In this document: positions 13,525 to 50,683 of the stretch, in pieces | Position numbering within the stretch: the first letter of the stretch is position 1 | How the letters are laid out: every line of letters starts with the position of its first letter | Assembly (NCBI RefSeq): GCF_049651025.1 | Contig: NZ_JBASBH010000035.1 | Location: 3,611-67,610 of the forward strand | Length of the DNA stretch: 64,000 bases | DNA from: Parvibaculum sp. | GTDB lineage: Bacteria > Pseudomonadota > Alphaproteobacteria > Parvibaculales > Parvibaculaceae | Direction: 5' to 3' | The notes under the pieces: model-generated | What the model saw: the letters and a program-made list of their open reading frames with translations, nothing else | Databases searched by the model: none | What the model was told of the DNA's origin: nothing | Program-made: the position numbers and the translations under genes

Positions 13525-13599
13525 TGGCTGGGGCGGGAGGATTCGAACCTCCGTATGACGGAATCAAAATCCGTTGCCTTACCACTTGGCGACGCCCCA
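13525..13599 (-). tRNA. tRNA-Gln (anticodon UUG)
   Basis: Reverse complement is TGGGGCGTCGCCAAGTGGTAAGGCAACGGATTTTGATTCCGTCATACGGAGGTTCGAATCCTCCCGCCCCAGCCA. Cloverleaf fits: acceptor TGGGGCG/CGCCCCA, anticodon stem ACGGA/TCCGT, loop TTTTGAT, TPsiC GGTTCGAATCC, encoded CCA. Closely resembles E. coli tRNA-Gln. Confidence 0.95.
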
Positions 13600-13754: not shown

Positions 13755-13831
13755 CGGAGTGTGGCGCAGTCTGGTAGCGCACCTCGTTCGGGACGAGGGG
13801 GTCGGAGGTTCGAATCCTCTCACTCCGACCA
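13755..13831 (+). tRNA. tRNA-Pro (anticodon CGG)
   Basis: CGGAGTGTGGCGCAGTCTGGTAGCGCACCTCGTTCGGGACGAGGGGGTCGGAGGTTCGAATCCTCTCACTCCGACCA. Acceptor CGGAGTG/CACTCCG, anticodon stem CCTCG/CGAGG with loop TTCGGGA, encoded CCA. Near-identical architecture to E. coli tRNA-Pro. Confidence 0.95.
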
Positions 13832-13985: not shown

Positions 13986-14013
13986 TTGACAGGCCCGGCG
14001 CGAAACCTATTAT
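13986..14013 (+). promoter_or_regulatory. Near-consensus sigma70-type promoter driving the riboswitch/btuB leader
   Basis: TTGACA (13986-13991), a 16-nt spacer, then TATTAT (14008-14013), immediately upstream of the riboswitch. Confidence 0.5.
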
Positions 14014-14014
14014 G

Positions 14015-14250
14015 CGCCCTGCTCGATGGTTCCCGAGGCGCGAAGGTTCGCGGCTGAGGGAGGCAAGAGGGAACAGGGTGAGGCAAGCGTCTTCGACAAG
14101 AAGGCTCGAGCCGATGCCCTGGCTGCCCCCGCAACTGTAAGCGGCGAGGCCTCGTTCGAAAAAGCCACTGTTGATTGCGCCTTTTGCGGGCACACACAAC
14201 GGGAAGGCGGAACAAGGCCGATGACCCGTGAGCCAGGAGACCTGCCATTA
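14015..14250 (+). promoter_or_regulatory. Cobalamin (B12) riboswitch
   Basis: Contains the hallmark conserved blocks in the correct order: GGTTCC, AGAGGGAACAGGGTGA, GCTGCCCCCGCAACTGTAA, GCCACTG, GGGAAGGC and the B12 box AGCCAGGAGACCTGCC (14231-14246). Lies upstream of a BtuB-like receptor. Confidence 0.85.
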
Positions 14251-14463
14251 AGCGCGTCATCTACCGGTGGCCGGGGTGTGCCAACGGGGCGGCTTGTCCG
14301 CATGGGTGACGCGTCGGTTTCGCGTCCCTTGCGGTGTTCCTGCCGCATCGTGTTGTGCGGTCTGTCGCGTCTTCTCCATGGGCTTCCCCGCTCTGTTTGT
14401 TCGCGCCCCACGTCGCCGGTCCATGCGGCCGGGGTTGGCCGCGAACGACACGATGGGGTTCTT

Positions 14464-16425
14464 ATGAACAACTCAATGCCCAATGGGCGCCGCCTGGGAG
14501 CGGCCCTCTTCACTCTTGCGGCGATATCCGCAAGTCCTGCTCTTGCCGATCAAACCGCAAGCATAGCGCCTGAGCTTCTGATCACGGCGGGCACCATGCC
14601 GCTGCCGACGAAGGAAGTCGCCAGCTCCTACACAATCATCACGGCGGCGGATATTCAGCGTTTTCAATATCGCACCGTTGTCGACGCGTTGAAGTCCGTT
14701 CCGGGCGTTCACATTGTGCAACAGGGCGGTTCAGGCTCGCTCGCCTATGCCTTTACGCGCGGCGGCAACTCCAACCAGACGCTCGTTTTGTTGAACGGGC
14801 AGCCTGTGAGCGACCCCGCCTCCCCTTCCAACGCTTTCAACTTCGCCTTCCTCACGCTTGAAAATGTCGAGCGCATCGAGGTGGTGCGCGGGCCGCAAAG
14901 CGCGCTTTATGGCAGCCAGGCGATCGGCGGCGTCATCAACATCATCACAAAGCAAGGCACGGCCACGCCGTCGAATACGCTCAGCGTTGAAGCCGGATCG
15001 CGCGGCTCGCTGAATACGAGCATCACGTCGAGCGGCAGCGTCGGCAAGACCAACTACTTTGCGTCTCTCGCGCGGCAGGCCACGAACGGCAACGACATTA
15101 CGCCGTCGAGATATCGCCTCGGTACGCCGGAGGAGAAAGATGGCAATGAGGACATCAACGGCTCGCTGCAACTCAACAGTGCGCTCAACGAGCTGGTGAC
15201 CGCATCTGCCTTCGCGCAATTCGGCGATACGCGCAATGCATCCGATACGAGTTTTGGAGGCATCGACGCCGGTGCGAAGACGATCCAGCTTTTTCTCAGC
15301 GGCTCGATCGAAGGTAAATTCGCAGGCGGCGTCTGGACGCCGAAGCTCAACACCTCGTTCACGAAATATCATCGCAACGATGTGGACTATCCCGACGTCC
15401 TCTCGGTGGACGACAGCCAGAGCAACAATCGCGGCGAACGCTTCACGCTGAGCGCGGACAATGCATTCAAGCTCGCCGATTGGAACCTGCTGACGATCGG
15501 CGCGGAATATGCGCATGAGACATTCACGTCGAATGGCTATCTGTTCATTCCCGATCCTGTGTGGGGCGACTATCTCTCGGTGGCGGATTCGGCGGCTGCC
15601 ACATCGTCAACGGCGATATATGGATCGAACCATGTCGATCTCGGCGGACGGTTCTTTGCCACCGTCAGCGGTCGCTATGACATGCCCAAGGATTTCGGCA
15701 ATCAGTTCACCTATTCGATTGCACCCGGCTATTACATCGAAGAAACCGATACGCGTCTGACGGCGAGCTATGGCACGGCCTTCAAGGTGCCCGCACTGTT
15801 CGAGCGCTATGGTTTCACGGCGACAACCTATGGCGACTATCACGGCAATCCCAATCTGAAGCCTGAAAAAAGCCGCGGCTGGGAAGTGGGCGTCGATCAG
15901 GGGCTGTTTGGCGACTATGCCAAGGTCGGCCTGACTTATTTCAAGAGCCGTATCGAGGATTCCATCCGGCAGGATGCGTTCTTCACGACGTCGATCAACA
16001 GCCCGACCTTCCATGCGTCGGGCGTGGAGAGCTATATCGAAATCGATCCGCTGCCCAATGTCTCGGCACGTCTCGACTACACCTATACGCTGATCGACAA
16101 GGGGGCGGCGGCGACGCCGATCCTTCGTCGGCCCCGCCATATCGTCAGCGGAACGCTCGGCTGGCAGGTTGACGACAAGACGGACCTTGGCCTCAATGTC
16201 GAATGGGTCGCCAATTATTTCGATGTTTACAACAGCCCCGTCGTCTTCGGCATTTTCAAGGCGAGCCCCTATGCGGTCGTGAATATCAGCGGATCGCATC
16301 AGCTTACCGACAGCGTGAAGCTGACGGCGCGGATCAACAATCTGCTGAACAAGCAATATGAGCCGGCAGATGGATTCCAGGCGCAGGGCTTCGAAGCCTT
16401 TGCGGGCATCGCCTATACGTTCTGA
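14464..16425 (+). CDS. btuB: TonB-dependent outer-membrane receptor, BtuB-like (cobalamin/corrinoid uptake inferred from the riboswitch)
   Basis: Signal peptide MNNSMPNGRRLGAALFTLAAISASPALA. TonB-box-like ELLITAG. Plug region VDALKSVPGVHIVQQGGSGSLAYAFTRGGNSNQTLVLLNG ... RIEVVRGPQSALYGSQAIGGVINIITK resembles BtuB. Terminal aromatic residue (AYTF). The track start at 14026 would translate the riboswitch and was rejected. Confidence 0.85.
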   Translation: MNNSMPNGRRLGAALFTLAAISASPALADQTASIAPELLITAGTMPLPTKEVASSYTIITAADIQRFQYRTVVDALKSVPGVHIVQQGGSGSLAYAFTRGGNSNQTLVLLNGQPVSDPASPSNAFNFAFLTLENVERIEVVRGPQSALYGSQAIGGVINIITKQGTATPSNTLSVEAGSRGSLNTSITSSGSVGKTNYFASLARQATNGNDITPSRYRLGTPEEKDGNEDINGSLQLNSALNELVTASAFAQFGDTRNASDTSFGGIDAGAKTIQLFLSGSIEGKFAGGVWTPKLNTSFTKYHRNDVDYPDVLSVDDSQSNNRGERFTLSADNAFKLADWNLLTIGAEYAHETFTSNGYLFIPDPVWGDYLSVADSAAATSSTAIYGSNHVDLGGRFFATVSGRYDMPKDFGNQFTYSIAPGYYIEETDTRLTASYGTAFKVPALFERYGFTATTYGDYHGNPNLKPEKSRGWEVGVDQGLFGDYAKVGLTYFKSRIEDSIRQDAFFTTSINSPTFHASGVESYIEIDPLPNVSARLDYTYTLIDKGAAATPILRRPRHIVSGTLGWQVDDKTDLGLNVEWVANYFDVYNSPVVFGIFKASPYAVVNISGSHQLTDSVKLTARINNLLNKQYEPADGFQAQGFEAFAGIAYTF

Positions 16426-16448
16426 TCGAACGCGAGTGAACGAGAATG

Positions 16449-16478
16449 AACGCGGGGAGGAACACTCCCCGCGTTTTT
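16449..16478. terminator. Bidirectional intrinsic terminator
   Basis: aacgcggggag-gaaca-ctccccgcgtt followed by TTTTT, between the convergent btuB-like gene and an enoyl-CoA hydratase gene. Confidence 0.7.
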
Positions 16479-17326
16479 CATTTTCCGGTGAAGTTCGCTT
16501 TGCGCTTCTCGACGAAGTGGGCGACGCCTTCCTTGAAGTCGGCTGTGCCGAAGCTCTTCTGCATTTCGCTGTCGCCGACTTCCAGCGCTTCGTTGAAACC
16601 CTGAAAGAGCGCTTTCCAGATTTGCGCTTTCATCACGGCCATCGAGCGGGGCGAGACGGTTTCGGCAAGCACCGTCGCATAATCCATCACCGCGCCCATG
16701 AATGTCTCCTGCTCGAAGACCTTGTTGACGAGGCCCATGCGCTCGGCTTCGGCGGCTGTGAACTTGCGGGCCGAGAGCAAGAGGTCGAGCGAGTGAGCGG
16801 GGCCGACGAGATGCGGCAAGAGCCAGGATATGCCGTGCTCGGCAATCAGACCGCGCTGCGCAAAGGCGGTCGTGAACTTCGCGTCGGAACCAGCAAAGCG
16901 CATATCGGCATATAGCGCGAAGACGAGGCCGAGGCCTGCCGCCGGGCCGTTGATCGCGGCAATGATCGGCTTCCTGATTTGAAAGAGATAACCGAAGCGG
17001 CCGCCATAATGCGGCGTGACGTCCGGCCCGAGATCGTTGCGAAAATCGAAGGTTTCCTCGCGCGTGGCTTGCGCCAGTTCGCGGTCCTCCCAGTTCGCCG
17101 GTTTGATCTGCTGAAGGAGGCCCATATCGGCCCCGGCGCAAAAGCCGCGCCCTGCCCCGGTTATCACGATGACGCGCACCGCATCATCTTGCACTGCAGC
17201 AGCGAGCGCCCGCTTGATGCTCTTTTCCATGGCGGCAGTCCAGGCATTGAGCCTGTCCGGCCTGTTCAGGGTGATGAGGCCGACGCGGCCCTTCACCTCA
17301 TAAATGAGATCCTCATACTGGCTCAT
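16478..17326 (-). CDS. Enoyl-CoA hydratase/isomerase (crotonase) family protein
   Basis: MSQYEDLIYEVKGRVGLITLNRPDRLNAW ... VIVITGAGRGFCAGADM ... PIIAAINGPAAGLG. The ATG at 17326 is preceded by AGGGAGAAAG. The longer track start at 17398 was rejected. Confidence 0.88.
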   Translation of the reverse strand: MSQYEDLIYEVKGRVGLITLNRPDRLNAWTAAMEKSIKRALAAAVQDDAVRVIVITGAGRGFCAGADMGLLQQIKPANWEDRELAQATREETFDFRNDLGPDVTPHYGGRFGYLFQIRKPIIAAINGPAAGLGLVFALYADMRFAGSDAKFTTAFAQRGLIAEHGISWLLPHLVGPAHSLDLLLSARKFTAAEAERMGLVNKVFEQETFMGAVMDYATVLAETVSPRSMAVMKAQIWKALFQGFNEALEVGDSEMQKSFGTADFKEGVAHFVEKRKANFTGK

Positions 17327-17417
17327 GGCTTTCTCCCTCGGTTGGCTTTTGCTCTTGCGGCATTTTGAGCGAGTATAGGCACGAGAAAGCGCGCTCAAAA
17401 AGGATGCGAAAGAAAAA

Positions 17418-18224
17418 ATGACAGGGTTTCAGCAGATCGTCGTCGATAGCCCGGAGCCGCATGTCGCGCGGATCGTGCTCAATCGTCCGCAGCAGATGAA
17501 CGCCTATTCGACCCAAATGTGCGAGGAACTGGTCGAGGCGCTGGAAGATTATCTGCGCGATGACGACAAGCGCTGCCTCATCCTCACCGGCGCGGGGCGC
17601 GGATTTTGTTCGGGCGGCGATGTCAGCGGCGCCGATGGCGAGCACGCGGAACTGATGAAGACGCAGCTTTCTCACGGACGCGAAATGCGCGACGGCATGC
17701 ACCGCGTCATTCTTGCGCTGTCGCGCATCGACAAGCCGGTGATTGCGATGATCAACGGTGCGGCGGTCGCTGGCGGATTGACGCTGGCCCTTGCCTGCGA
17801 CATGCGCATTGCGTCCGATCAGGCAAAGCTTGGCGACACGTCTGGCCGCTTCGGGCTCCTGCCGGACGAAGGCGGCGCCTGGCTCTTTCCCCGCGCCATG
17901 GGCCTCGACCGGGCATTGAAGATGACGCTGCTTGGCGAGGTTTACAACGCAACCGAGGCTGAGCGCCTCGGGCTTGTAACGGAAGTCGTGCCGCATGCCG
18001 AGCTTGAAGTGCGGACATTCGCGCTGGCTCGCGCGCTTGCGAAGAAAGCACCGCTCGCCGTTCGGCTGGCGAAGAACATGATGCTGCGCGCGAGCGACGT
18101 GTCGCTGGAGCGTTCGCTTGGCGATGCGGCACTTTCCGTCATGGTCGCCAATCCGAGTGCGGATGTGCGCGAAGGCGTGAAAGCGTTCTTTGAAAAGCGG
18201 GAGCCTAAATTCGCGGGCAAGTGA
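17418..18224 (+). CDS. Enoyl-CoA hydratase/isomerase (crotonase) family protein
   Basis: 268 aa with IVLNRPQQMNAY, LILTGAGRGFCSGGD and PVIAMINGAAVAGGLTLALACDMRIA crotonase motifs. Confidence 0.9.
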   Translation: MTGFQQIVVDSPEPHVARIVLNRPQQMNAYSTQMCEELVEALEDYLRDDDKRCLILTGAGRGFCSGGDVSGADGEHAELMKTQLSHGREMRDGMHRVILALSRIDKPVIAMINGAAVAGGLTLALACDMRIASDQAKLGDTSGRFGLLPDEGGAWLFPRAMGLDRALKMTLLGEVYNATEAERLGLVTEVVPHAELEVRTFALARALAKKAPLAVRLAKNMMLRASDVSLERSLGDAALSVMVANPSADVREGVKAFFEKREPKFAGK

Positions 18225-39922: not shown

Positions 39923-40308
39923 CGCCTCGAAGCTTCGGCGGAAACGATTGGACGGCGCGGGCGTAGAAGAACCTCCAGGCTGAGCCTCGCGATTCAAATC
40001 TCTGCCATTTTCGTGCGCTCGAATCCATCATTGCGCAAAAACCATTCAGAGTTCGGCGATGCGACTGCGGCTTATAGCTCGCTTTGAATCGATCTATTCT
40101 ACCGCACAAGTGAAATTCCACTGATCAACATGATGGTCGCAATAATGATCCGCAGGGACAGGAGAACTGCGTAGAGAAAGTTAGCCGCAGTTTCCGTAGT
40201 CGGATCAATAGCGACCCATCCAGATAGGGAATTAGGCTTGAGGATCGGGGCGTCTCTTATACCCAGAACCCACCTTGCTAGTCCGGACGATATCGAGTGG
40301 CTTCAGGA

Positions 40309-40743
40309 CTAAAGCCAGGCGACCGCGCCGAGCAGCATGCTGATATGGCCGTCGCCCCATAGCGGAAGCAGGAGGCGGCTATAGTCGCTCGTTCTGTAAT
40401 AGGTCGGCGCATGGCCTTCGACTGTCGCGCTGGCTTGCGACTGGAAAAAGTGGAGCGGGTCATGCGTGTCGATCTCATCGGCAAAGCTGCCCGCAAGCGC
40501 CTTGCCATAGCGCGCGGAAACGTCCCGGCCGACGATGTCGAAGCGAAAGCGTTCGGGCCTGGTGAATGCGGCAACGAGCATCAACCTGCCCTCCAGCCCG
40601 GGCAGGTCGGTCAGCTTCACATCGTCCCAATAGGGCATATCGCTTGCCTGACCACGTATCAGGCCCTTCCAGTAGGCGTGCACCTTGGCGAGATCGTCTT
40701 CGAGATGCGGAGGCAGGATGTAGGCGGAGGCGGCGTTGGTCAT
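40309..40743 (-). CDS. Small stand-alone PAS_5 (PF07310-type) domain protein
   Basis: 144 aa. LAKVHAYWKGLIRGQASDMPYWDDVKLTDLP ... RFRFDIVGRDVSARYGKALAGSF ... YSRLLLPLWGDGHISMLLGAV: a pattern typical of the alphaproteobacterial PAS_5 family. Its ATG overlaps the GH2 stop (ATGA). Confidence 0.75.
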   Translation of the reverse strand: MTNAASAYILPPHLEDDLAKVHAYWKGLIRGQASDMPYWDDVKLTDLPGLEGRLMLVAAFTRPERFRFDIVGRDVSARYGKALAGSFADEIDTHDPLHFFQSQASATVEGHAPTYYRTSDYSRLLLPLWGDGHISMLLGAVAWL

Positions 40744-42791
40744 TTTGGCTTCCTGCTTGCGGGTGATGTGTCGAGCCGTTTTCCGAATTGCTTCGACCCG
40801 TTCTCGGTAAAAGAATCTTCAGTCCATGATTGAAGCGGCGCGTCGCCGAGCGCGCGATAGATGCGTTGCAGATATGCGAAAGCTTTTTTCCTTGCGCCCG
40901 TTTCATCCACGAGACCCTTGCGATTGTAATAGTCCTGATAGGCGGGATGCGTGCGCAGCGGCGAGCGGAAATCCTTGAGCACCCAGGGCGAAAGGCCGCG
41001 AAGCCTGTGGCTCTTCGCCAACATGGCGAGCTGGAGTTCATAGAGCCTGAGCTGGTAGGACTCCGACATCATCGTCTGGTCGTCGCCTTCGAAACCCGCT
41101 TTCGCGTCGGCACCGAATTCCGTAACGATGAGCGGCTTGTCGGCGACAGGGTCGAAGGTCAGTTCCTGCATCAGGACGAGGAACATGCGCGCCATTTCCG
41201 CCTCATCCATCGGTACAGTGCGCGCCCATTGCGCCGCATAGTACCAGCCGAAATATTCGTTCCAGGCAATGACATCCAGATATTCCGCCAATGGATCGTC
41301 GATCGCGAGCGCAGGCGCACGAGCGAGCGTCTGGAGAATTGCAGGATTGCTCGCGTCGACGCCGTCTGCGGCGAAAGCGCTGCGGATGGGCGCCTTGGTC
41401 CGTTCATCGACGGACGGGTCCAGCAGGAGCCGCGCACGGATTGTTGCGACGACAGGTTTGCGCACATCCTTGTCGCGGCCATAGATCGCCGCGGAGACGA
41501 GGCGAGTGCCGTCGAGAGCGCGCACGTCATCAATAAGATTCTTGAGGAATTCGAGGCGCGAAGCGGTTGGCGGCGTTTCATTGGCGACCGACCAGATGAT
41601 GACGCTGGTACGATTTCTGTCGCGCTCGACCATCGTCCGCACTTGCGCCTTTGCATTTTCGAGCGTCGCCGGATTGTCCCAGGAGATCTGCCAATAGACG
41701 GGCGATTCCGACCAGACCAGAAGGCCTAGTTCGTCGGCAAGCCGCGTCACATATTCATTGTGTGGATAGTGCGCGAGCCGCACGAAATTGCAGCCGAGTT
41801 CCACGGCGAGCGAAAGAAGTGCGCGGGCGTCCTCCGGTCCGAAGGCGCTGCCGTCATGGCGCGGGCTTTCTTCATGCGCAGAGATTCCTTTGAGGAAAAC
41901 AGGCGCGCCGTTCAGCAGAATATCGGCCCCGCGCCGCTCGACCATGCGAAAGCCGATGCGGTCGCGGATCGTCTCGCCGTTGAAATTCAATTCAACATCG
42001 TAAAGCTGCGGGTGCGCTGAAGACCACAGGCTTGCCCTGGTGTCGAAGACCGTTTCGGCAAGGCCCTCTGCATCGACGGTTGCGCGCGCCGTTTCTCCGA
42101 GCGCTGGCAGAACGACTTCGATTTCGCGTCCGGTCGTCGCGCCTTCGACATGAAATGTCGCACGGATGCGGCGCGTGGCGAGATCGTCGAGCCTGATCCA
42201 GTAATCGCGGATATAGGGATCGGGGAGCGAGAGAAGCAGAACCTCGCGCTTGATGCCGCCATAGTTCCACCAATCGGTGAGAAGCGTCGGCACGGTTTCC
42301 GCATCGACCCGCGCATCCACCTTGACGATCAGAAAATTGTTTCCGTTCTTCAATGTCTCTGTCACGTCGAAGGCAAAGGGCGTGTAGCCGCCTTCATGCG
42401 TTCCGATGCGCGTGCCGTTGAGCCAGATTTCGGCCCGATAATTGACTGCGCCGAAGTGAAGAAGGTAGCGGCGTCCCGGCTCCCACGCGGCTGCAAAGTC
42501 TCTGCGATACCAGACAGTCGATTCATAAAAGAACAGACGCGCATCCTGCGTGTTCCAGTCGCGGCCTGTCTGGAGCGTGTGCCGGTCGTCGAATGCGAAT
42601 TCGATGAGCTCAAGCCCCTGCGCGCTCTCGCGGCCCTCGGTGAGACCATCAATATTGCGGCCCGGCAACGGCGGATGAAGCCCCGGGCTGCGCGGATCGA
42701 CAATGATGCGCCATGCACCGCCAAGATCGAGATGTGCACGCCCGAAGGGGTTCTGGATCAGAGACGCATCATGAGCTTGTATGGCGGTCAT
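40740..42791 (-). CDS. Glycoside hydrolase family 2 (beta-glucuronidase/beta-galactosidase-like), no signal peptide
   Basis: 683 aa. Sugar-binding domain (VWYRRDF, NGTRIGTHEGGYTPFAFDVT). TIM barrel with acid/base WSVANE and nucleophile region IVTEFGADA. An insertion of about 50 aa lies between them. Confidence 0.85.
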   Translation of the reverse strand: MTAIQAHDASLIQNPFGRAHLDLGGAWRIIVDPRSPGLHPPLPGRNIDGLTEGRESAQGLELIEFAFDDRHTLQTGRDWNTQDARLFFYESTVWYRRDFAAAWEPGRRYLLHFGAVNYRAEIWLNGTRIGTHEGGYTPFAFDVTETLKNGNNFLIVKVDARVDAETVPTLLTDWWNYGGIKREVLLLSLPDPYIRDYWIRLDDLATRRIRATFHVEGATTGREIEVVLPALGETARATVDAEGLAETVFDTRASLWSSAHPQLYDVELNFNGETIRDRIGFRMVERRGADILLNGAPVFLKGISAHEESPRHDGSAFGPEDARALLSLAVELGCNFVRLAHYPHNEYVTRLADELGLLVWSESPVYWQISWDNPATLENAKAQVRTMVERDRNRTSVIIWSVANETPPTASRLEFLKNLIDDVRALDGTRLVSAAIYGRDKDVRKPVVATIRARLLLDPSVDERTKAPIRSAFAADGVDASNPAILQTLARAPALAIDDPLAEYLDVIAWNEYFGWYYAAQWARTVPMDEAEMARMFLVLMQELTFDPVADKPLIVTEFGADAKAGFEGDDQTMMSESYQLRLYELQLAMLAKSHRLRGLSPWVLKDFRSPLRTHPAYQDYYNRKGLVDETGARKKAFAYLQRIYRALGDAPLQSWTEDSFTENGSKQFGKRLDTSPASRKPK

Positions 42792-42795
42792 GCGG

Positions 42796-44166
42796 TCAGC
42801 TCACTCTGCGGATGAGGTCCGCATACCAGCGGGCCGACGACTTCGGCGTGCGCTTCAGCGTCTTGAAGTCCACATAGACGAGGCCGAAGCGGTTGGAGAA
42901 GCCTGCGCCCCATTCGAAATTGTCGAGAAGTGACCAGACGAAATAGCCGCGCACATCGGCGCCCGCCTTGACCGCCTCGCCAAGTGCGTGGGTATAGGCG
43001 CGGAGATAGTCGACGCGTTTCTCGTCGAGAATTTCGCCTGCCGCGTTCGGCGCGTCATTATCGCCGCAACCATTCTCCGTCACATAGATGGGAAGTTTGT
43101 AACGCTTTGCCGTGTCGATCAGGATTTCGCGGAAGGCATCGGGATGGATCGGCCAGCCGATGCCGGTATGGGCGGCACTGTCCGGCGACTTGCCCCAGCC
43201 GAAGCCGAGCTGCGCGCCCGCATCGGCGCGCGCATAGATCGGCGAATAATGATTGAGGCCGAACCAGTCGGTCTTGCGGCAGATCTGCGCCATGTCGCCG
43301 GCTTTCTGATAGGGCTCCATGTCGAGCGCGGCGAGCGGCGGATAGGCGGCAAAATTCTGCGGATCGGGGAAAATCAGATTCCAGTGCGTGTCGAGAAGCG
43401 CCGCCGCTTGCGCGTCCTCCGCACTGTCGCTTTCGGGATAGACCTGCTGGCGGTTATGCACGATGCCGATGGAAGCATCGGGGACAAGCGAACGGATCAC
43501 ATCGACGGCGCGGCCATGCGCAAGGTTCAGATGATGGACCGCCTTGAAGTAGGATGCCCTCTCCACGATGCCCGGCGCATTCCAGCCCATGGCATAGCCG
43601 AACATGGTTGAGACGGATGGCTCGTTAAAGGTGGCGAAGCGCTTCACACAGTCGCCGTAGCGGCGCGAGATGAGCGCCGCATAGTCGGCGAACCATCCGG
43701 CTATATCGCGGCTCGTCCAGCCGCCGAGATCGTCCAGCGCTTGCGGCAGATCCCAATGATAGAGGCAGAGCCACGGTTCGATCCCTGCTTCGAGCACGCT
43801 GTCGATCAGACGGTCGTAGAAATCGAGGCCCTTTTCATTGGTAACGCCGCGTCCGAGCGGAAGCACACGCGGCCAGGCAATCGAAAACCGATAGGCTTTC
43901 AAACCGAGATCGCGCATCAATGCAACGTCTTCGGCATAGCGGTGATAATGGTCGCAAGCGACATCGCCCGTGTCGTCATGGGCAATGCGGCCATTCTGGC
44001 GGCAATAGGTGTCCCATATGCTTGCGCCGCGCCCGTCCTCCTTCGCCGCGCCTTCGATCTGATAGCTCGATGTCGACGCACCCCAGAGAAATCCCTTCGG
44101 AAGCACGTTCTTCTGCAACTCGACGGTTGCGGCCTTGGCGTCGGTGACGATGGGGGATTGTGTCAT
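42796..44166 (-). CDS. Glycoside hydrolase family 1 beta-glucosidase, no signal peptide
   Basis: 456 aa. FLWGASTSSYQIEGA, acid/base TFNEP and nucleophile YVTENG motifs. Confidence 0.92.
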   Translation of the reverse strand: MTQSPIVTDAKAATVELQKNVLPKGFLWGASTSSYQIEGAAKEDGRGASIWDTYCRQNGRIAHDDTGDVACDHYHRYAEDVALMRDLGLKAYRFSIAWPRVLPLGRGVTNEKGLDFYDRLIDSVLEAGIEPWLCLYHWDLPQALDDLGGWTSRDIAGWFADYAALISRRYGDCVKRFATFNEPSVSTMFGYAMGWNAPGIVERASYFKAVHHLNLAHGRAVDVIRSLVPDASIGIVHNRQQVYPESDSAEDAQAAALLDTHWNLIFPDPQNFAAYPPLAALDMEPYQKAGDMAQICRKTDWFGLNHYSPIYARADAGAQLGFGWGKSPDSAAHTGIGWPIHPDAFREILIDTAKRYKLPIYVTENGCGDNDAPNAAGEILDEKRVDYLRAYTHALGEAVKAGADVRGYFVWSLLDNFEWGAGFSNRFGLVYVDFKTLKRTPKSSARWYADLIRRVS

Positions 44167-45947
44167 GATCCGTCTTTGCTGATCGGCACGAGGCGTGCGT
44201 TTTCGGCTCTTTCAAGGCAGAGCTTGCGGTCGTGAAATCTTTCGAGCGCGGGGTGAAAACCGATCGTCATGATCGTGGCGTCCGGGAATTCGTGCCGCAA
44301 CGTCTCCATCATTTTCTCTTCACCCTTTGGGTCGAAAGCGTCGCTGGCTTCCTGCATGAATATCCAGCTCGGGCGATGGAGAAAGAGCCGCGCGAATCCG
44401 AGGCGTTGCTGGCCGCGCTGCGTGAGCACCTGATCCCATGCTTCAACATCGCCGAGCCTCATGGTGAGATAGCCGAGCCCAGCATGATCGAGCGCCGCGC
44501 GGATGACATTGTCGTCAAAGAGATCGGGTTCGTCCGGATAGCTGATCGCCGTGCGCAGGGAGCCATGCGGAATGAAGGGGCGTTGCGGCATGAAAAAGAT
44601 GGACCGGTCCTTCGGCAGAAGGACGCGGCCCCTGCCCCACGGCCAGAGCCCGGCGACCACTTTGAAGAGATCGACGGCGGCGTCTGCGTCCCCGTCAATC
44701 AGCACCCGTTCGCCTTCGCGGATTTCAACATCGAATCCGTCGAGAACGTGCGGGCCTTCGGGCCTCGAGATATGCAGATCGCTGATGATGAGTGTCGGTA
44801 TAGCGGCGGTGGCAAATTCGATGCGCTCTTCCATGCCGTCGACAGGTTGTTCGTCTAGCGCGGCGAGGTCGTCATGCAACGACAGAACACGATTGGCGGA
44901 TGCGCTCCACCTTGCCATGTCTGCCAGATTATCGATCGGCCAGGACAGGGCGGAGGTAAGTTTCTGGAACGCCTGAGCCGTCTGCATCAGAACGCCGAGC
45001 GACATGGTGCCGGCAATATATTGCGGGGCGCAAACGAGGATCGGGAAAACCGGAAGCAGCGCGCCATAGCCGGAGGTGAAGAACAGGATCCACGTATAGG
45101 CCAGCGTCTGGCGGCCCCACCATTCGCGAATGTCGGAGAAGAGAGCGAATGACCGCTGCCGTTCCATCTTTTCGCCGCCGACCAGAGCAATCGCTTCGGC
45201 TTGTTCGCGCGCACGGGCGAGGCCGAAACGGAAATTGGCCTCGACCGTTTGCAGCCCGTTCGTCGATCTGACGAGAGGCTGGCCAAGGATAAGTCCCATC
45301 ACAGTGCCTGCACCCGCATAGGCAAAGGCGAGCACAACCATGTAGCCCGGAACATGCAATGACGAGCCGTTCAGGCTGACCGTGGTGCCACCGGCGACGG
45401 AGAGCAGAATGTCGACAAAGCTGCCGAGAATGAGCAGCGAGTAGACCAGCGTATGGCTGAGGCTGATCGCAAGATCGGTAACGATGTTGATGTCGTCAGC
45501 GATGCGGCCGTCGGGATTGTCGTGCTCGCCCGGCGTAAAGGTGAGCCGGTAATGGCGCTTCTCCGACATCCAGCGGTCGATGACATGTCTGGTGAGCCAG
45601 CCGCGCCAACTGATCTGCAGCCGCTTTTTTACCTGCAAATGCATGGCGGCCACGGCCATGGTGAGGCTGAAGATGATGGCGAAAATACCGATCTGGGCGA
45701 GGAAGCGGGAGGTGGATCGCTCGCCAAGGGCGTCGAACAGCGCGCCGTTCCAGTAATTCGTCCAGATGGCGAGGACGACTTGCGCCAAGGTCAACAGCAC
45801 AAGACCGGCTGTGAGGCCGATTGCCTTCCACCGGTCTTCCGTGGTCCAGAAAGGCGCGGCCATGCGGATGAAACGCCGCAAGAATCGATAGCGAGAAAGG
45901 ATCGAGCCTTCCGGGGTGCGGCGGACGATGGGAGCGTCGATCGTCAT
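44163..45947 (-). CDS. SbmA/BacA/YddA-type (ABC_membrane_2) fused permease-NBD protein with degenerate ATPase motifs
   Basis: 594 aa. The TMD resembles YddA/SbmA (FWTTEDRWKA, NPDGRIADDI). In the NBD, Walker A is GDADAAVD instead of GPSGxGKS, the signature is LTQRGQQR instead of LSGGEQQR, and Walker B is WIFMQE instead of hhhhDE. Confidence 0.8.
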   Translation of the reverse strand: MTIDAPIVRRTPEGSILSRYRFLRRFIRMAAPFWTTEDRWKAIGLTAGLVLLTLAQVVLAIWTNYWNGALFDALGERSTSRFLAQIGIFAIIFSLTMAVAAMHLQVKKRLQISWRGWLTRHVIDRWMSEKRHYRLTFTPGEHDNPDGRIADDINIVTDLAISLSHTLVYSLLILGSFVDILLSVAGGTTVSLNGSSLHVPGYMVVLAFAYAGAGTVMGLILGQPLVRSTNGLQTVEANFRFGLARAREQAEAIALVGGEKMERQRSFALFSDIREWWGRQTLAYTWILFFTSGYGALLPVFPILVCAPQYIAGTMSLGVLMQTAQAFQKLTSALSWPIDNLADMARWSASANRVLSLHDDLAALDEQPVDGMEERIEFATAAIPTLIISDLHISRPEGPHVLDGFDVEIREGERVLIDGDADAAVDLFKVVAGLWPWGRGRVLLPKDRSIFFMPQRPFIPHGSLRTAISYPDEPDLFDDNVIRAALDHAGLGYLTMRLGDVEAWDQVLTQRGQQRLGFARLFLHRPSWIFMQEASDAFDPKGEEKMMETLRHEFPDATIMTIGFHPALERFHDRKLCLERAENARLVPISKDGS

Positions 45948-45997
45948 CTGTCCTTCAGTCCGGCTTCATGCGAATGGCTGGCAGGGACACGTAAAGA

Positions 45998-48511
45998 CTA
46001 CTCCCTTGTCTTTCCCGGCGTCGAGATAGCGAATTGGCGCCGCAACGGGCCTGCTCCTATCCGGCGGAGACGTGGCCGTGTTGCAGCGTTCGGACTTGTA
46101 CGTTTCGGCGCACGCACTGCTTCGGCGTCCGCAAGGATGGTCATGGTGCGGATGACGCTTTGCGGATTGACGCTGATCGAGTCGATGCCGAGCTTTGCGA
46201 GAAAACGTGCGATCCCGGGGTTATTCGCAGGCGCTTCGCCGCAAATGCCGACATGGCGGCGGTTGCGCTTTGCGCCGGTGACGGCGAGACGCAGCATTTC
46301 CATCATGCCGGGATCTCCCTCGTCGAAGTCGAAGGCGACGATTTCGGAATCGCGGTCGACACCGAGCGTAAGCTGCGTCAGATCGTTCGAGCCGATGGAG
46401 AAACCGTCGAAAAGCTCGGAGAAAGCGTCGATGCGGATCACATTGTTCGGAATCTCGCACATGACAAAAATTTCGAGGCCGTTTTCGCCGCGCTTCAGCC
46501 CGTGTTCGGCCATGCTGGCGATGACTTTGCGCGCCTCTTCTTCGCGGCGGCAGAAGGGAACCATGATCTTGAGATTGTCGAGGCCCATCTTGCCGCGCAC
46601 CCTGGCAAGCGCCGCACATTCAAGCGCGAAGCCCGCCGCATAGGCCTGATGCGTATATCGCGAGGCGCCGCGAAAACCGAGCATGGGATTGGCTTCCTTC
46701 GGTTCGAAAGCCGCGCCCGCGATGAGGCTTGCATATTCGTTCGTCTTGAAGTCGGAGAGCCGGACGATGACCGGCTTTGGATAGAAGGCGGCGGCTATCG
46801 TGCCGACACCTTCCGAAAGTTTCTCGACGAAGAAGTCCGCCGGCTTCTTGTAGCCTCGCGTCAGCGTTTCGATTTTCCTGCGGTCGCTTGCAGATGCCAC
46901 CTTCTTCGGTGCGGCAAGGGCCATGGGATGAACGCCGATATATTCGTTGATGATGAATTCCATCCGCGCAAGGCCGACGCCGTCATTGGGCAGCATGGCT
47001 GTGCGGAAGGCGAGATCGGGATTTCCGAGATTGACCATGATGGCGGTCTTCGGTCGCTTCAGCTTGTCGGTCGTCATCCGCGTGACGTTGAAGGGAACGG
47101 CGCCCTTGTAGATGTGGCCGGTCTCACCCTCGGCGCAGGAGATCGTGACGATCTCACCCGTCTTGATCTTTGCGGTCGCACCTTCCGCACCAATGACCGC
47201 AGGCACGCCCATCTCGCGCGCGACAATGGCGGCGTGGCAAGTGCGGCCGCCATGATCGGTCACGATCGCCGCCGCCTTTTCCAATACGGGTTGCCAGTCA
47301 GGGCTTGTCGTTCGCGCCACCAGAACCTCACTGGGCTTGAATTTGGCGAGGTCTCGCTTGTTCACGATGACGCGGGCCTTGCCGGTCGCGATCTTCTCGC
47401 CGACGGCGCGGCCGGACGCGACGACGGCGCCCTTTCCTTTCAGCGCATATGTTTCAAAAACATTCGTCGCCCGCTGGGAGGCGACCGTCTCGGGCCGCGC
47501 CTGAATGATGTAGAGGCGGCCATCCACTCCGTCCTTCGCCCATTCGATATCCATGGGCATCGGATGGCCTGCTGCCTTCGAGTAATGACCCTCGATCGCC
47601 ATAGCCTGACCGGCAAGGTCCAGCGCCTCGCGGTCGGAAATGCAATAGCGCTCGCGATCGATGCGCGGCGTCTTCACGAGACGCGTGCTTACCTCCTTCT
47701 TCACGCGCGCGTATTTGAGCTTCACTTCCTTCGCTCCGAGCGAGTGGCGAAGAATGGCGCGATGGCCTGCCTTGAAGGTCGGCTTGTGCACATAGAACTC
47801 GTCCGGATCGACCTGACCCTGCACAATCGTTTCGCCAAGGCCATAAGCGCCAGTGATGAAAACAACGTCGCGAAAGCCAGACTCCGTATCCAGCGTGAAC
47901 ATCACACCGCTCGCCGCCATATCCGAGCGCACCATCTTCATGACGGCGACGGAGAGAAAAACCTTGGAATGGGCAAAGCCACTATTATTCCGGTAGACGA
48001 TAGCGCGGTCGGTGAAGATGGACGCAAAGCAGCGGCGACAGGCATCGATCACATGGGGCAAGCCGCTCACATTGAGGAAGCTTTCGTGCTGGCCCGCAAA
48101 ACTTGCAGTCGGCAGGTCTTCGGCAGTGGCGGAACTGCGCACGGCGACCGCGACGTTCTTGCCATATTGCTTCTGCAACGTTGCATAGGCCGTCTCGATC
48201 TGCTGCCTGATTTCGTCCGTTCCCGTTGCTCGGTAAACGATATCGCGCGCCTTGGCGGCGTTGCGGGCGAGCGTCCTGGTATCGGCGCGCTTGAGGCCCT
48301 TGAGGAGCGGCGCGAGCTTTTCCCAGGCCCCCGCCTTGGTCAGCGCGTCGCGATAGGCCCCGGCGGTCAGCGCAAAGCCGTTTGGAACGCGAACGCCCGC
48401 GTCGGATAGCGCGTTGTAAAGCTCGCCAAGCGACGAGGTCTTGCCGCCGACAAGCGATACGTCCGCGACATGGATGTCCTTAAACCAGCGAATGTAATCG
48501 TGATGCGGCAT
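45998..48511 (-). CDS. ppsA: Phosphoenolpyruvate synthase (pyruvate, water dikinase)
   Basis: 837 aa from the ATG at 48511 (RBS GGGGGAGAAG). MPHHDYIRWFKDIHVADVSLVGGKTSSLGEL, phospho-His motif GGRTCHAAIVAREMGVPAV, and a C-terminal PEP-utilizer TIM barrel (FFSIGSNDLTQ-like GFSIGSNDLTQLTLG). The 1261-aa track ORF is an upstream shadow extension. Confidence 0.93.
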   Translation of the reverse strand: MPHHDYIRWFKDIHVADVSLVGGKTSSLGELYNALSDAGVRVPNGFALTAGAYRDALTKAGAWEKLAPLLKGLKRADTRTLARNAAKARDIVYRATGTDEIRQQIETAYATLQKQYGKNVAVAVRSSATAEDLPTASFAGQHESFLNVSGLPHVIDACRRCFASIFTDRAIVYRNNSGFAHSKVFLSVAVMKMVRSDMAASGVMFTLDTESGFRDVVFITGAYGLGETIVQGQVDPDEFYVHKPTFKAGHRAILRHSLGAKEVKLKYARVKKEVSTRLVKTPRIDRERYCISDREALDLAGQAMAIEGHYSKAAGHPMPMDIEWAKDGVDGRLYIIQARPETVASQRATNVFETYALKGKGAVVASGRAVGEKIATGKARVIVNKRDLAKFKPSEVLVARTTSPDWQPVLEKAAAIVTDHGGRTCHAAIVAREMGVPAVIGAEGATAKIKTGEIVTISCAEGETGHIYKGAVPFNVTRMTTDKLKRPKTAIMVNLGNPDLAFRTAMLPNDGVGLARMEFIINEYIGVHPMALAAPKKVASASDRRKIETLTRGYKKPADFFVEKLSEGVGTIAAAFYPKPVIVRLSDFKTNEYASLIAGAAFEPKEANPMLGFRGASRYTHQAYAAGFALECAALARVRGKMGLDNLKIMVPFCRREEEARKVIASMAEHGLKRGENGLEIFVMCEIPNNVIRIDAFSELFDGFSIGSNDLTQLTLGVDRDSEIVAFDFDEGDPGMMEMLRLAVTGAKRNRRHVGICGEAPANNPGIARFLAKLGIDSISVNPQSVIRTMTILADAEAVRAPKRTSPNAATRPRLRRIGAGPLRRQFAISTPGKTRE

Positions 48512-48673: not shown

Positions 48674-50683
48674 ATGGACAGCGACGAAGCTGACCTCGCA
48701 AGACGCCGCTCCAATATGGTCGATCTGCAGATCGCCGCGCGGGGTGTACTGAGCGCGAATGTGCTGGAGGCGATGCGAAAGGTACCGCGCGAGGCCTTCC
48801 TGCCGCATGAGATGCGGGAATTCGCCTATGACGACGCGCCGCTTCCCATTGCCGAAGGGCAGACGATCTCTCAACCCTATATCGTGGCCTTGATGACAGA
48901 GGCTCTCGGCCTTGAAGGCAATGAGCGCGTGCTCGAGATCGGGACGGGATCGGGTTACGCCGCCGCTGTCCTGTCGCGCATCGCAGGCGAAGTTTACACC
49001 GTCGAGCGCGTCGGCCAGCTCGCGGAAAAGGCCGCGACGGTGCTTGCCGATCTCGGCTATGCCAATGTGCATGTCAACCATGCCGACGGAACAATGGGCT
49101 GGAACAGAGGCGCGCCTTACGATGCAATCGTCGTGACAGCGGGCGGGCCGGAGGTGCCGGAAGCACTGAAGAACCAACTCAGGATCGGCGGCAGGCTCGT
49201 CGTACCGGTCGGCGACGATCCACGCTTGCAGGAGCTTGTGCGCGTCACGCGGCTTTCCGAAAACGAATACAAGACGGAGGAACTTCTCGATGTTCGCTTC
49301 GTGCCGCTGGTCGGCGAGGCGGGATGGACGCAGGCGGAAGCCGAGGCGGGCGCACCACGGAAAGCCCGGGCACCCGAGACGGAGGATGCAAAGCTTGCAA
49401 AGGCGATCGCAAGGGAGAGCGAGCCGTTCGGCAGCATCGACAATGCAGACCTCGAACCGCTCCTGAAACGTATCGGCGATGCGCGCGTCGTCCTGCTTGG
49501 CGAGGCAACGCATGGCACGTCGGAGTTCTATCGCATGCGGGAGCGCATTTCGCGCACGCTCATCGAAAAGAAGGGCTTCTCCTTCATCGCCATCGAGGGC
49601 GACTGGCCGGATGCTGCACGCATCGACCATTATGTGCGCCACGCCGAATATCCGCCTTCCGAATGGACGGCCTTTGCGCGCTTTCCGGTCTGGATGTGGC
49701 GCAACAGGGAAGTACGCACCTTTGTCGACTGGCTCCGCGCTCACAACGCCGCGGTCGAGCCCGCGCGCCGCGTCGCCTTTCACGGCCTCGATCTCTACAG
49801 CCTCTATAATTCAATTCGCTCGGTGCTCGCCTATCTCGATGAGGTCGATCCGGCGACGGCGGAGGTCGCGCGCAGGCGCTACGGCTGCCTGACGCCCTGG
49901 CAGACGGACCCGGCGACCTATGGCCATGCGGCGCTCACGGGGACATACCGGACCTGCGAGAAAGAGGTCGTGCACATGCTCTCCGATCTTCTGGAGAAGC
50001 GGCGCGCCTATGCCGAGAGCGACGGCGAGCGTTTTCTCGACGCGGTGCAGAATGCGCGCCTCGTCGCCAACGCGGAGCGCTACTACCGTATCATGTATTA
50101 TGGTTCGCGCGCGTCATGGAATCTGCGCGACACGCATATGTTTGAAACGCTGAAGGCGCTTCTCGGCTTTCACGGCGCAGGAAGCAAGGCAATCGTCTGG
50201 GCGCATAACTCGCATGTGGGCGATGCGTCGGCGACGGAAATGTCGGCGCGCGGCGAAACCAATATAGGCGAGCTTTGCAGGCGCGAATTCGGATCCGCCG
50301 TCTATTCCATCGGCTTCGGCACGAATAGCGGCACGGTGGCGGCCGCGTCGAACTGGGAAGCGCCGATGGAGATCAAGAAGGTGCACCCTGCCCTGCCCCA
50401 AAGCTATGAGCGGCTTTGTCATGAAACCGGCAGCGAGCGTTTCTTTCTCAAGCTGCGCGCGCCGATCGCGACGGATATCGCGCAAGGCCTGTCGAAGCCG
50501 CGCCTCGAACGCGCCATCGGCGTCATCTACCGGCCCGAGACGGAGTTGCAGAGCCATTACTTCGAAGCGACGCTGCCACGGCAGTTCGACGAATATGTCT
50601 GGTTCGACAAGACGCGAGCCGTGACGCCTTTCGAGACCGAGGAGCTTGAGGATATGCCCGACACCTATCCGTTCGGGCTCTAG
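48674..50683 (+). CDS. Fusion protein: protein-L-isoaspartate O-methyltransferase (PCMT) domain + erythromycin-esterase-like (Ere/ChaN/TIKI superfamily) domain
   Basis: Residues ~15-215 carry TISQPYIVALMTEAL and VLEIGTGSGYAAAVLS (PCMT). Residues ~250-669 carry VVLLGEATHGTSEFYRMRERISRTLIEKKGFSFIAIEGDWPDA and IVWAHNSHVGDA (erythromycin esterase family). Confidence 0.85.
   Translation: MDSDEADLARRRSNMVDLQIAARGVLSANVLEAMRKVPREAFLPHEMREFAYDDAPLPIAEGQTISQPYIVALMTEALGLEGNERVLEIGTGSGYAAAVLSRIAGEVYTVERVGQLAEKAATVLADLGYANVHVNHADGTMGWNRGAPYDAIVVTAGGPEVPEALKNQLRIGGRLVVPVGDDPRLQELVRVTRLSENEYKTEELLDVRFVPLVGEAGWTQAEAEAGAPRKARAPETEDAKLAKAIARESEPFGSIDNADLEPLLKRIGDARVVLLGEATHGTSEFYRMRERISRTLIEKKGFSFIAIEGDWPDAARIDHYVRHAEYPPSEWTAFARFPVWMWRNREVRTFVDWLRAHNAAVEPARRVAFHGLDLYSLYNSIRSVLAYLDEVDPATAEVARRRYGCLTPWQTDPATYGHAALTGTYRTCEKEVVHMLSDLLEKRRAYAESDGERFLDAVQNARLVANAERYYRIMYYGSRASWNLRDTHMFETLKALLGFHGAGSKAIVWAHNSHVGDASATEMSARGETNIGELCRREFGSAVYSIGFGTNSGTVAAASNWEAPMEIKKVHPALPQSYERLCHETGSERFFLKLRAPIATDIAQGLSKPRLERAIGVIYRPETELQSHYFEATLPRQFDEYVWFDKTRAVTPFETEELEDMPDTYPFGL

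Follow-up and report, generated by a model that had tools for sequence, protein, structure and literature searches.

A transporter of the SbmA/BacA/YddA family with a degenerate nucleotide-binding domain is encoded beside cytoplasmic beta-glucosidases in Parvibaculum and in other Proteobacteria and Desulfobacterota

How might a substrate reach two cytoplasmic glycosidases whose only companion transporter belongs to a family known for carrying peptides? This question is raised by four genes in a 64,000-nucleotide stretch of a Parvibaculum sp. genome (hereafter the window, with positions counted from its first nucleotide). The genes lie on the minus strand between 40309 and 45947 and encode, in order of transcription, a transporter of the BacA/YddA/ABCD lineage (44163–45947; 594 aa), a glycoside hydrolase family 1 (GH1) beta-glucosidase (42796–44166; 456 aa), a uronidase-type GH2 enzyme (40740–42791; 683 aa) and a small stand-alone PAS-like protein (40309–40743; 144 aa). 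An initial annotation of this DNA had placed both glycosidases in the cytoplasm and had named the SbmA/YddA-family protein as their transporter. Both points hold: the N-termini of GH1 and GH2 are hydrophilic and carry no hydrophobic signal sequence, and the linkage of transporter to glycosidase is conserved. What was overlooked, when the transporter was described as an ABC protein of YddA type, is that its ATPase motifs have been lost. We describe below a clade of such transporters and its repeated pairing with cytoplasmic beta-glucosidases, which points to a hitherto undescribed import route, probably independent of ATP, for compounds of beta-linked glucose.

The transporter consists of a transmembrane domain (TMD; about aa 20–365, 44853–45890), over which Pfam matches span residues 39–341 and the AlphaFold model places long helices at residues 16–365, followed by a nucleotide-binding domain (NBD)-like region (about aa 386–580, 44208–44792). 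PF06472 covers residues 39–307 (E = 2.2e-39), and PF05992 is matched at 72 bits against a cutoff of 24 (E = 6e-20). The NBD-like region aligns to the NBDs of ABCD1 and of the Mycobacterium tuberculosis protein Rv1819c, and a normal NBD fold is predicted (pLDDT mostly 84–92); there is no match to PF00005 (ABC_tran) on the transporter, even at E ≤ 10. In a residue-level alignment to Rv1819c, the Walker A sequence GRSGAGKT falls on GDADAA-VD, leaving a remnant (GDADAAVD, aa 419–426, 44670–44693) with a one-residue deletion and no Lys-Ser/Thr. The signature LSPGEQQR falls on LTQRGQQR (aa 508–515, 44403–44426; LSxGEQQR in canonical relatives), and the H-loop SHR on GFH, within IGFHP (aa 562–566, 44250–44264), where the catalytic His position is occupied by an invariant Phe564. 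The Walker B consensus hhhhDE has become FMQE, in a remnant reading WIFMQE (aa 528–533, 44349–44366), with Asp replaced by Gln (Glu in most homologues) and Glu533 retained; the deposited Rv1819c chain itself reads LDG here. Also kept are the D-loop Asp and Gln455 of the Q-loop, a loop through which the NBD is usually coupled to the membrane domain.

In an ABC dimer, one chain contributes its P-loop and the other its signature to every ATP site. Because the window chain has lost both, any dimer that contains it would, by this established architecture, be left without an intact composite ATP site. With this motif loss as evidence, we consider with high confidence that the NBD is non-catalytic, and ATPase activity has presumably been lost. 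It might be argued that ATP still drives the protein, either at a nucleotide site of an unconventional kind or because a canonical half-transporter from another locus pairs with it, and that it would then be an ordinary YddA-type transporter after all; the conserved NBD fold, with Gln455, the D-loop Asp and Glu533, would be in keeping with this, and heterodimeric ABC exporters in which a single site is degenerate are familiar. Those degenerate sites, however, keep their Walker A, which is deleted here, and the signature of the same chain is lost too, so that both composite sites of any dimer would be defective. Further, no second half-transporter gene is conserved nearby in the 80 species-genome loci described below, and a lineage lacking the NBD altogether occupies the same genomic niche. 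Continued ATP-driven transport therefore appears to have only the slimmest chance of being correct.

By existing definitions the protein is difficult to place. It shares the PF06472 TMD of canonical ABC transporters of the YddA/BclA/Rv1819c type without their Walker A, signature, Walker B and H-loop His; it shares PF05992 with the SbmA/BacA (SLiPT) group, but its 594 residues with an NBD fold depart from the TMD-only architecture of about 400 aa, and it scores 54 bits against a cutoff of 492 for the SbmA equivalog NF008306. It is a member of neither group as currently defined. Its best NCBIfam match is TIGR00954, the peroxisomal fatty-acyl transporter subfamily (2e-42), and ABCD1 and ABCD3 are strong sequence and fold matches. 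Public annotations for these proteins read 'vitamin B12/bleomycin/antimicrobial peptide transport system ATP-binding/permease' or 'ABC transporter ATP-binding protein/permease'.

The loss of these motifs is not peculiar to the window. The same degenerate motifs occur in all 120 of the closest homologues (54–99% identity), drawn from Alpha-, Beta- and Gammaproteobacteria and Desulfobacterota, and G-x4-GK[ST] occurs in none; across the clade the remnants read GD(P/A)xxT..LFK, LPLRAQQRL and hhhEEATDAFD. At E ≤ 1e-30, a search of 1.84 billion representative proteins gave 1471 relatives. Walker A is missing from all of the top-scoring representative clusters, about ten in number (P0104, P0241–P0250); an intact motif is first seen at P0251 (41% identity) and predominates further down. 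In a tree built from the TMD only, which is free of influence from the NBD motifs because the NBD was left out, the degenerate proteins form one clade with a common P-loop deletion and the canonical relatives fall outside it, although this and all other trees here were made by neighbour joining only. The domain does not have the profile of a relic: across 121 sequences the majority-residue frequency reaches 0.70 for the NBD and 0.76 for the TMD, and 46 NBD columns are invariant (alignment A1). Judged by this conservation, the NBD-like domain is under constraint and is not decaying.

What does this clade travel with? In a first scan, which used one genome per species (80 loci) and combined tblastn with clustering of neighbouring open reading frames (ORFs), a transporter–glycosidase pairing was found at 71 loci. 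At 59 of the 80 the partner is a cytoplasmic GH5 enzyme of about 370 aa, encoded directly downstream and convergent with the transporter (median gap 37 bp), in hosts that include Pseudomonas, Azotobacter vinelandii, Thauera, Azoarcus, Desulfovibrio and Steroidobacteraceae; GH1 takes its place at 12. Magnetospirillum is also among the taxa that show the linkage, which thus extends well beyond the Rhizobiales, the order in which the initial annotation had proposed to look for it. The GH5 partner, which is absent from the window, belongs to its family by PF00150 (3.7e-15), carries the NEP and EWS catalytic motifs in 52 of 53 cases, and has a short, hydrophilic N-terminus without a signal peptide; among solved structures it comes closest to exo-beta-1,3-glucanases from fungi and the rumen (1e-61 to 1e-47; 8z2w at 1e-61, 1eqp at 1e-55). 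A glucokinase (PF02685, 5e-110) adjoins at about ten of the 80 loci, usually 37 bp upstream and co-directional, and no other neighbour is conserved at more than 12.

A second scan compared deep-branching degenerate members against metagenome contigs, and GH1 or GH5 adjoins 38 of the 63 degenerate-clade genes found there. The arrangement differs between sub-clades: in the GNAFTGSKLFK sub-clade GH5 lies co-directionally 30 bp downstream, in the GDPGAAI(K/R)LF(K/R) sub-clade GH1 is convergent, and GH1 lies upstream in a third degenerate sub-clade. These varied orientations, which suggest repeated re-association of a glycosidase, argue for function and against inherited synteny. Among relatives with an intact Walker A, a glycosidase neighbour was seen in none of 17 loci (Fisher p = 2.8e-6 against the 38 of 63), although these control loci, recovered in the same scan, all have the same surroundings and, being in all likelihood close relatives, are not independent samples. 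The canonical loci (L128, L131, L134, L137–L139 and others) have surroundings of their own: a 265-aa protein, which we take from its sequence to resemble a class II aldolase, is encoded 22 bp upstream and co-directionally, and downstream lie genes whose products we read as tripartite tricarboxylate (TctC/Bug)-like binding proteins and an acyl-CoA-dehydrogenase-like protein.

A separate family of transporters offers a parallel. A search with homologues of the small PAS-like protein led to a 377-aa SbmA-like protein without an NBD (locus L086, 4129–5801), 30% identical to the window TMD, whose neighbours include the small PAS-like gene, PfkB, glucokinase, ppsA and a GH1 gene 61% identical in product to that of the window. 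GH1 adjoins this NBD-less family (about 375 aa) in all four sampled loci (L086, L088, L089, L090). In L086 and L089, a 180-aa CBS-domain gene overlaps the end of the transporter gene by 4 nt, and in L089 (4637–7673) the order is GH1–transporter–CBS with overlapping junctions, with Glk, ppsA and PfkB just upstream. Descent of this lineage from the degenerate clade was considered and rejected, as the neighbour-joining TMD tree sets the NBD-less proteins apart, beside canonical members. In this admittedly crude tree, the two losses of the ATPase look independent. There are, then, two lineages of this transporter family that to all appearance have no functional ATPase, and each of them is linked to beta-glucosidases of the cytoplasm.

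The evidence, computational throughout, agrees between two scans, between two lineages and among several gene orders, and the gene arrangement is far beyond chance. We hold with good confidence that the transporter module is functionally tied to the breakdown of beta-glucosides. In the window, the partner is itself well supported as a GH1 beta-glucosidase: it matches PF00232 (2.5e-149), scores 579.7 bits against the cutoff of 478.5 for the TIGR03356 BGL model, and carries the catalytic motifs NEP at aa 181 and TENG at aa 363. The conserved partners (GH1 or GH5, with glucokinase and PfkB) suggest that beta-glucosides or beta-gluco-oligosaccharides are the substrates, feeding glycolysis.

We propose, with moderate confidence, that the system is an ATP-independent importer of beta-glucosides or beta-gluco-oligosaccharides, which would be hydrolysed to glucose in the cytoplasm. 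Its core would be a module of two genes, one for a transporter of type IV ABC fold in the inner membrane and one for an exo-acting beta-glucosidase in the cytoplasm. Driven by the proton gradient or by the substrate gradient, in the manner of SbmA/BacA, the transporter may carry hydrophilic beta-glucosides or short beta-gluco-oligosaccharides from periplasm to cytoplasm without ATP. Glucose would then be released by GH1 here, or by the GH5 exo-beta-1,3-glucanase homologue in most other lineages, and passed to glycolysis through the glucokinase and PfkB-type kinase that many sister loci encode. As for the dead NBD, it has probably been retained for a structural (clamp) or regulatory (gating) function, and in the NBD-less lineage the CBS partner is a hint that nucleotides or metabolites are sensed. 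By analogy, the window transporter would work most like SbmA/BacA; SbmA, a proton-driven importer (PMC13316013), is the precedent for an ABC-type TMD acting as a secondary transporter, and PMC10960864 presents Rv1819c as an importer of bulky hydrophilic solutes with a large cavity.

Several observations weigh against this proposal, in addition to the exclusive use of neighbour joining and the non-independence of the canonical loci. The direction of transport and the substrate are both read from guilt by association. A clade-specific, membrane-embedded acidic residue that might serve proton coupling was not found; the membrane residues that distinguish the clade are only H103, K107, R108 and several Gln. 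About one third of degenerate-clade loci have no adjoining glycosidase (in part because contigs are short), and in the GDPEAAxALFR sub-clade such a neighbour was never seen in the metagenome scan. In most crown-group loci GH5 is convergent with the transporter and not co-transcribed with it. Finally, sugars are not a known growth substrate for many of the hosts, Parvibaculum, Thauera and Desulfovibrio included, and plain uptake of nutrients is accordingly less obvious as a role.

This last point leads to the principal alternative, in which the same machinery serves the cell's own periplasmic beta-glucans (osmoregulated; cyclic beta-1,2 or beta-1,3) and recycles them into the cytoplasm, where they would be hydrolysed to glucose, instead of acquiring nutrients. 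Such salvage is attractive because many of the hosts are not regarded as sugar users and because no extracellular glucanase accompanies the module; nor is a binding protein or outer-membrane receptor conserved beside it. The resemblance of the GH5 partner to exo-beta-1,3-glucanases would fit, as would the large cavity for bulky hydrophilic cargo attributed to Rv1819c-type transporters (PMC10960864). There is also some genomic proximity to glucan synthesis: a 2867-aa GH94/glycoamylase protein resembling cyclic beta-1,2-glucan synthases is encoded 3.5 kb from the PfkB, PAS-like and ppsA genes of Phenylobacterium montanum (L085, 1–2432), and a 57%-identical fragment of such a gene lies divergently 420 bp upstream of a degenerate-clade transporter on a metagenome contig (L110, 3–2393). 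But this adjacency, which we treat as a lead and not as evidence, was seen only these two times, with L110 falling in a sub-clade without a glycosidase neighbour, and neither the window nor the other 160 loci gave a glucan synthase match. Moreover, the opening of cyclic glucans is not a known activity of exo-enzymes from GH1 or GH5. We consider self-glucan recycling unlikely as the role of the module.

The initial annotation had instead proposed uptake of a glycoconjugate, for instance a glycosylated peptide or an aglycone-glycoside from plants or microbes, followed by deglycosylation inside the cell. This would preserve the specificity of the family for peptides and bulky solutes, given that characterised members import peptides, bleomycin and cobalamin (PMC13316013 and PMC10960864), and the presence of both GH1 and a uronidase-type GH2 in the window is as expected for mixed glycosides, for example glucuronidated aglycones. 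However, no peptidase or aglycone-processing enzyme is conserved beside the module, where the conserved extras are glucokinase and the PfkB kinase; GH2 is missing from half of the Parvibaculum-type loci; and the widespread partner is an exo-beta-1,3-glucanase homologue. These partners point to beta-glucosides and beta-gluco-oligosaccharides and not specifically to glycosylated peptides, and the glycoconjugate version now appears improbable.

The ABCD-like affinities of the transporter (TIGR00954 as best NCBIfam match, and ABCD1 and ABCD3 as strong matches in sequence and fold) would be in keeping with yet another role, in which the protein would flip or extract a beta-glucosyl lipid that GH1 or GH5 then deglucosylates. 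Both glycosidase families include glucosylceramidases, and in L001 and L004 the module has genes for lipid transport of the Mla type in its vicinity. Yet the nearest solved relatives of the GH5 partner are exo-glucanases of soluble glucans and not ceramidases, GH1 passes the BGL equivalog threshold, and Mla genes are not conserved neighbours. Handling of glycolipids is accordingly very improbable. In L001, a locus from one Parvibaculum relative, the genes downstream of the module (14930–17797) encode MlaC, an acyl carrier protein, a ketoacyl synthase and a class I/II aminotransferase, a set that we take to resemble bacterial sphingolipid or aminolipid synthesis genes.

A role in corrinoid uptake was likewise considered for the operon and rejected, as the sole cobalamin riboswitch in the window lies 30 kb away, before another gene. 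This element (RF00174, 108 bits; 14010–14263, plus strand) stands at the start of a 799-aa ORF (14026–16425), and tRNA genes lie nearby at 13528–13599 (minus strand) and 13755–13828 (plus strand).

Turning from the core module to the rest of the locus, the four genes form the tight block that had been described. Direct reading confirms that the transporter stop overlaps the GH1 start (ggatcATGAcac, 44163–44166), that a 4-nt gap separates GH1 from GH2 (TGAccgcATG, 42792–42795), and that GH2 and the PAS-like gene share an ATGA overlap (aaaATGAcc, 40740–40743). Upstream and co-directional is ppsA (45998–48511, minus strand; 837 aa; PF01326, PF00391, PF02896), which encodes phosphoenolpyruvate synthase. 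Its stop codon TAG (45998–46000) is separated from the transporter ATG at 45947 by the expected 50-nt spacer (45948–45997), in which GAAGGA directly precedes the ATG. No terminator-like sites were found between the operon genes or in this spacer, but the promoter and terminator scans returned counts at or below shuffle expectation and were uninformative; ppsA may share the operon transcript, and it precedes the transporter in all Parvibaculum-type loci. A 1261-aa 'ppsA' ORF proved to be an artefact of in-frame extension to an upstream GTG across a divergent gene, the true start being 48511 according to our own translation and to the gene call on an identical 12.7-kb contig of a public assembly (L087). 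Across a 162-bp spacer, and divergent from ppsA, lies a gene (48674–50683, plus strand) for a 669-aa fusion of protein-L-isoaspartate O-methyltransferase (PF01135, 1.8e-62) and erythromycin-esterase (PF05139, 8e-138).

The earlier view of the locus as one conserved four-gene unit holds only in part. The Parvibaculum-type order of ppsA–transporter–GH1–(GH2)–small gene is syntenic in all such loci examined, but the last two components vary. GH2 is present in the window and in L001–L003, L005 and L009, and absent from L006–L008 and L122; the small PAS-like gene occurs only in loci of Alphaproteobacteria. Both are lineage-specific accessories. GH2 (PF02837, PF00703, PF02836) carries the acid/base motif ANET403, the nucleophile TEFG557 and an NxK-like uronate-recognition motif, NRKG623, as in GH2 glucuronidases and galacturonidases, and these motifs make a uronidase likely. 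Its best matches among solved structures are Bacteroides uniformis BuGUS-1 (6d1n, 2e-150) and the beta-galacturonidase AqGalA (7vqm, 2e-140), and it falls below the NCBIfam GUS equivalog cutoff (211 against 544). In this Parvibaculum lineage, with the module placed behind ppsA, the gained GH2 may extend the range to substrates containing beta-glucuronide or galacturonide.

The small protein had been called a PAS_5 protein. Domain searches matched the families expected of the other three products (PF06472 and PF05992, PF00232, and the GH2 domains), but the 144-aa protein gave no Pfam match at E ≤ 10, PF07310 included. The label survives in a looser sense, as a divergent relative with a PAS-like fold: 10 of 35 homologues match PF07310 (best 1e-7), and the AlphaFold model (pLDDT 92.6) gives modest PAS/GAF-like fold matches (E = 2.6e-3, TM about 0.5). 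There is also a weak match to NCBIfam MopJ (E = 4e-4), and the sequence is 100% identical to a hypothetical protein from a Parvibaculum sp. metagenome-assembled genome. Gained as a stand-alone protein, it could be a sensor of a small ligand.

The company kept by this small gene suggests where such sensing might act. A gene for a PfkB-type kinase (TIGR03168, above cutoff) lies convergent just after it in every other Parvibaculum-type locus (L001, L002, L005–L009, L122). The 64-kb window encodes no PfkB homologue, and in that position has a 386-bp non-coding spacer (39923–40308), in which no RNA elements were found, followed by a PF03601 gene. The initial statement that the locus lacks a sugar kinase is thus correct for the window and does not extend to sister loci, which carry PfkB, glucokinase or both; the domain search agreed with it that the locus has no solute-binding protein and no LacI/ROK regulator. 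In Phenylobacterium (L085), the small gene is flanked by PfkB and ppsA, and neither a transporter nor GH1 is close by. More generally, the gluconeogenic ppsA, the possibly glycolytic PfkB-type kinase and the PAS-like gene form a recurrent group in Alphaproteobacteria, whether the transporter is present or not (L085, 4912–8908; L086; L089; Parvibaculum loci). Because the small gene is found in this grouping without transporter or GH1, its primary association may be with PfkB and ppsA, which encode enzymes that oppose each other in central carbon metabolism, and its product may act on central-carbon flux and not on transport.

In the literature searched, we found nothing that links the SbmA/BacA/YddA family to glucosidases, glucans, beta-disaccharides or sugars, and no description of a dead-NBD clade or of homodimeric ABC transporters without Walker A; the word 'degenerate' does not occur in a 2026 phylogenetic study of SbmA and its relatives. 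If the proposed import of beta-glucosides is correct, the energy source and the substrate implied by public names are both mistaken for a clade that occurs in many Proteobacteria and Desulfobacterota, and a new fold and mechanism would be added to bacterial uptake of beta-glucosides and beta-glucans. Its occurrence in organisms not regarded as sugar users raises the possibility of periplasmic-glucan salvage. The origin of SbmA-type proton-driven importers from ABC transporters is under active study (PMC13316013). The dead-NBD clade and the NBD-shed lineage, occurring in the same niche, would be living intermediates that can be purified and compared. We suggest tentatively that the clade is a natural intermediate between primary and secondary transport, a homodimer that no longer hydrolyses ATP and whose NBD, still under selection, has been repurposed for gating or metabolite sensing, with the CBS partner as a possible parallel in the NBD-less lineage; the BacA/SbmA family would also have moved into carbohydrate transport, possibly to supply a missing inner-membrane step in the recycling of periplasmic beta-glucan.

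Comparison with known systems places the window transporter among familiar folds without equating it to any of them. Rv1819c (BacA; 6TQE/6TQF) is the best solved relative by sequence (E = 9e-60, residues 75–590) and the best fold match (E = 3.5e-25 over 598 columns, full length), both proteins being half-transporters of the type IV ABC fold with the TMD followed by the NBD. Rv1819c, however, is ATP-driven, with canonical Walker A, signature and H-loop His (its deposited chain being altered to LDG at Walker B), whereas the window protein has lost all four; and it has been linked to cobalamin, bleomycin and peptides, not to glycosidases. Canonical relatives of the YddA/BclA type (32–41% identity), the nearest outgroups in the TMD tree, share the PF06472 TMD, the length and the architecture; they retain GxSGxGKS, LSGGEQQR and hhhhDE, which the window protein does not, and those sampled occupy the different, glycosidase-free neighbourhood described above. 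With E. coli SbmA and rhizobial BacA the likeness lies in PF05992 and a related TMD (7p34, E = 7e-5), but these proteins have no NBD at all, where the window protein keeps a conserved, motif-less one, and the known cargo of SbmA is peptides. The heterodimers TmrAB, TM287/288, BmrCD and PatAB provide precedent for retained non-catalytic ATP sites in type IV ABC transporters; their degenerate site still has Walker A and binds ATP, and their other site is fully active, whereas the window chain has lost both P-loop and signature. In sugar uptake, the ABC importers of cellobiose or beta-glucosides that depend on a binding protein and act with a cytoplasmic GH1, such as those of the CebEFG–MsiK/BglC type, and the LacY/LacZ pair differ entirely in transporter fold and energy source, and the solute-binding protein, separate ATPase and LacI/ROK regulator have no counterpart in the window locus. 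The logic of these systems is nonetheless the one proposed here: import, followed by hydrolysis in the cytoplasm, followed by phosphorylation.

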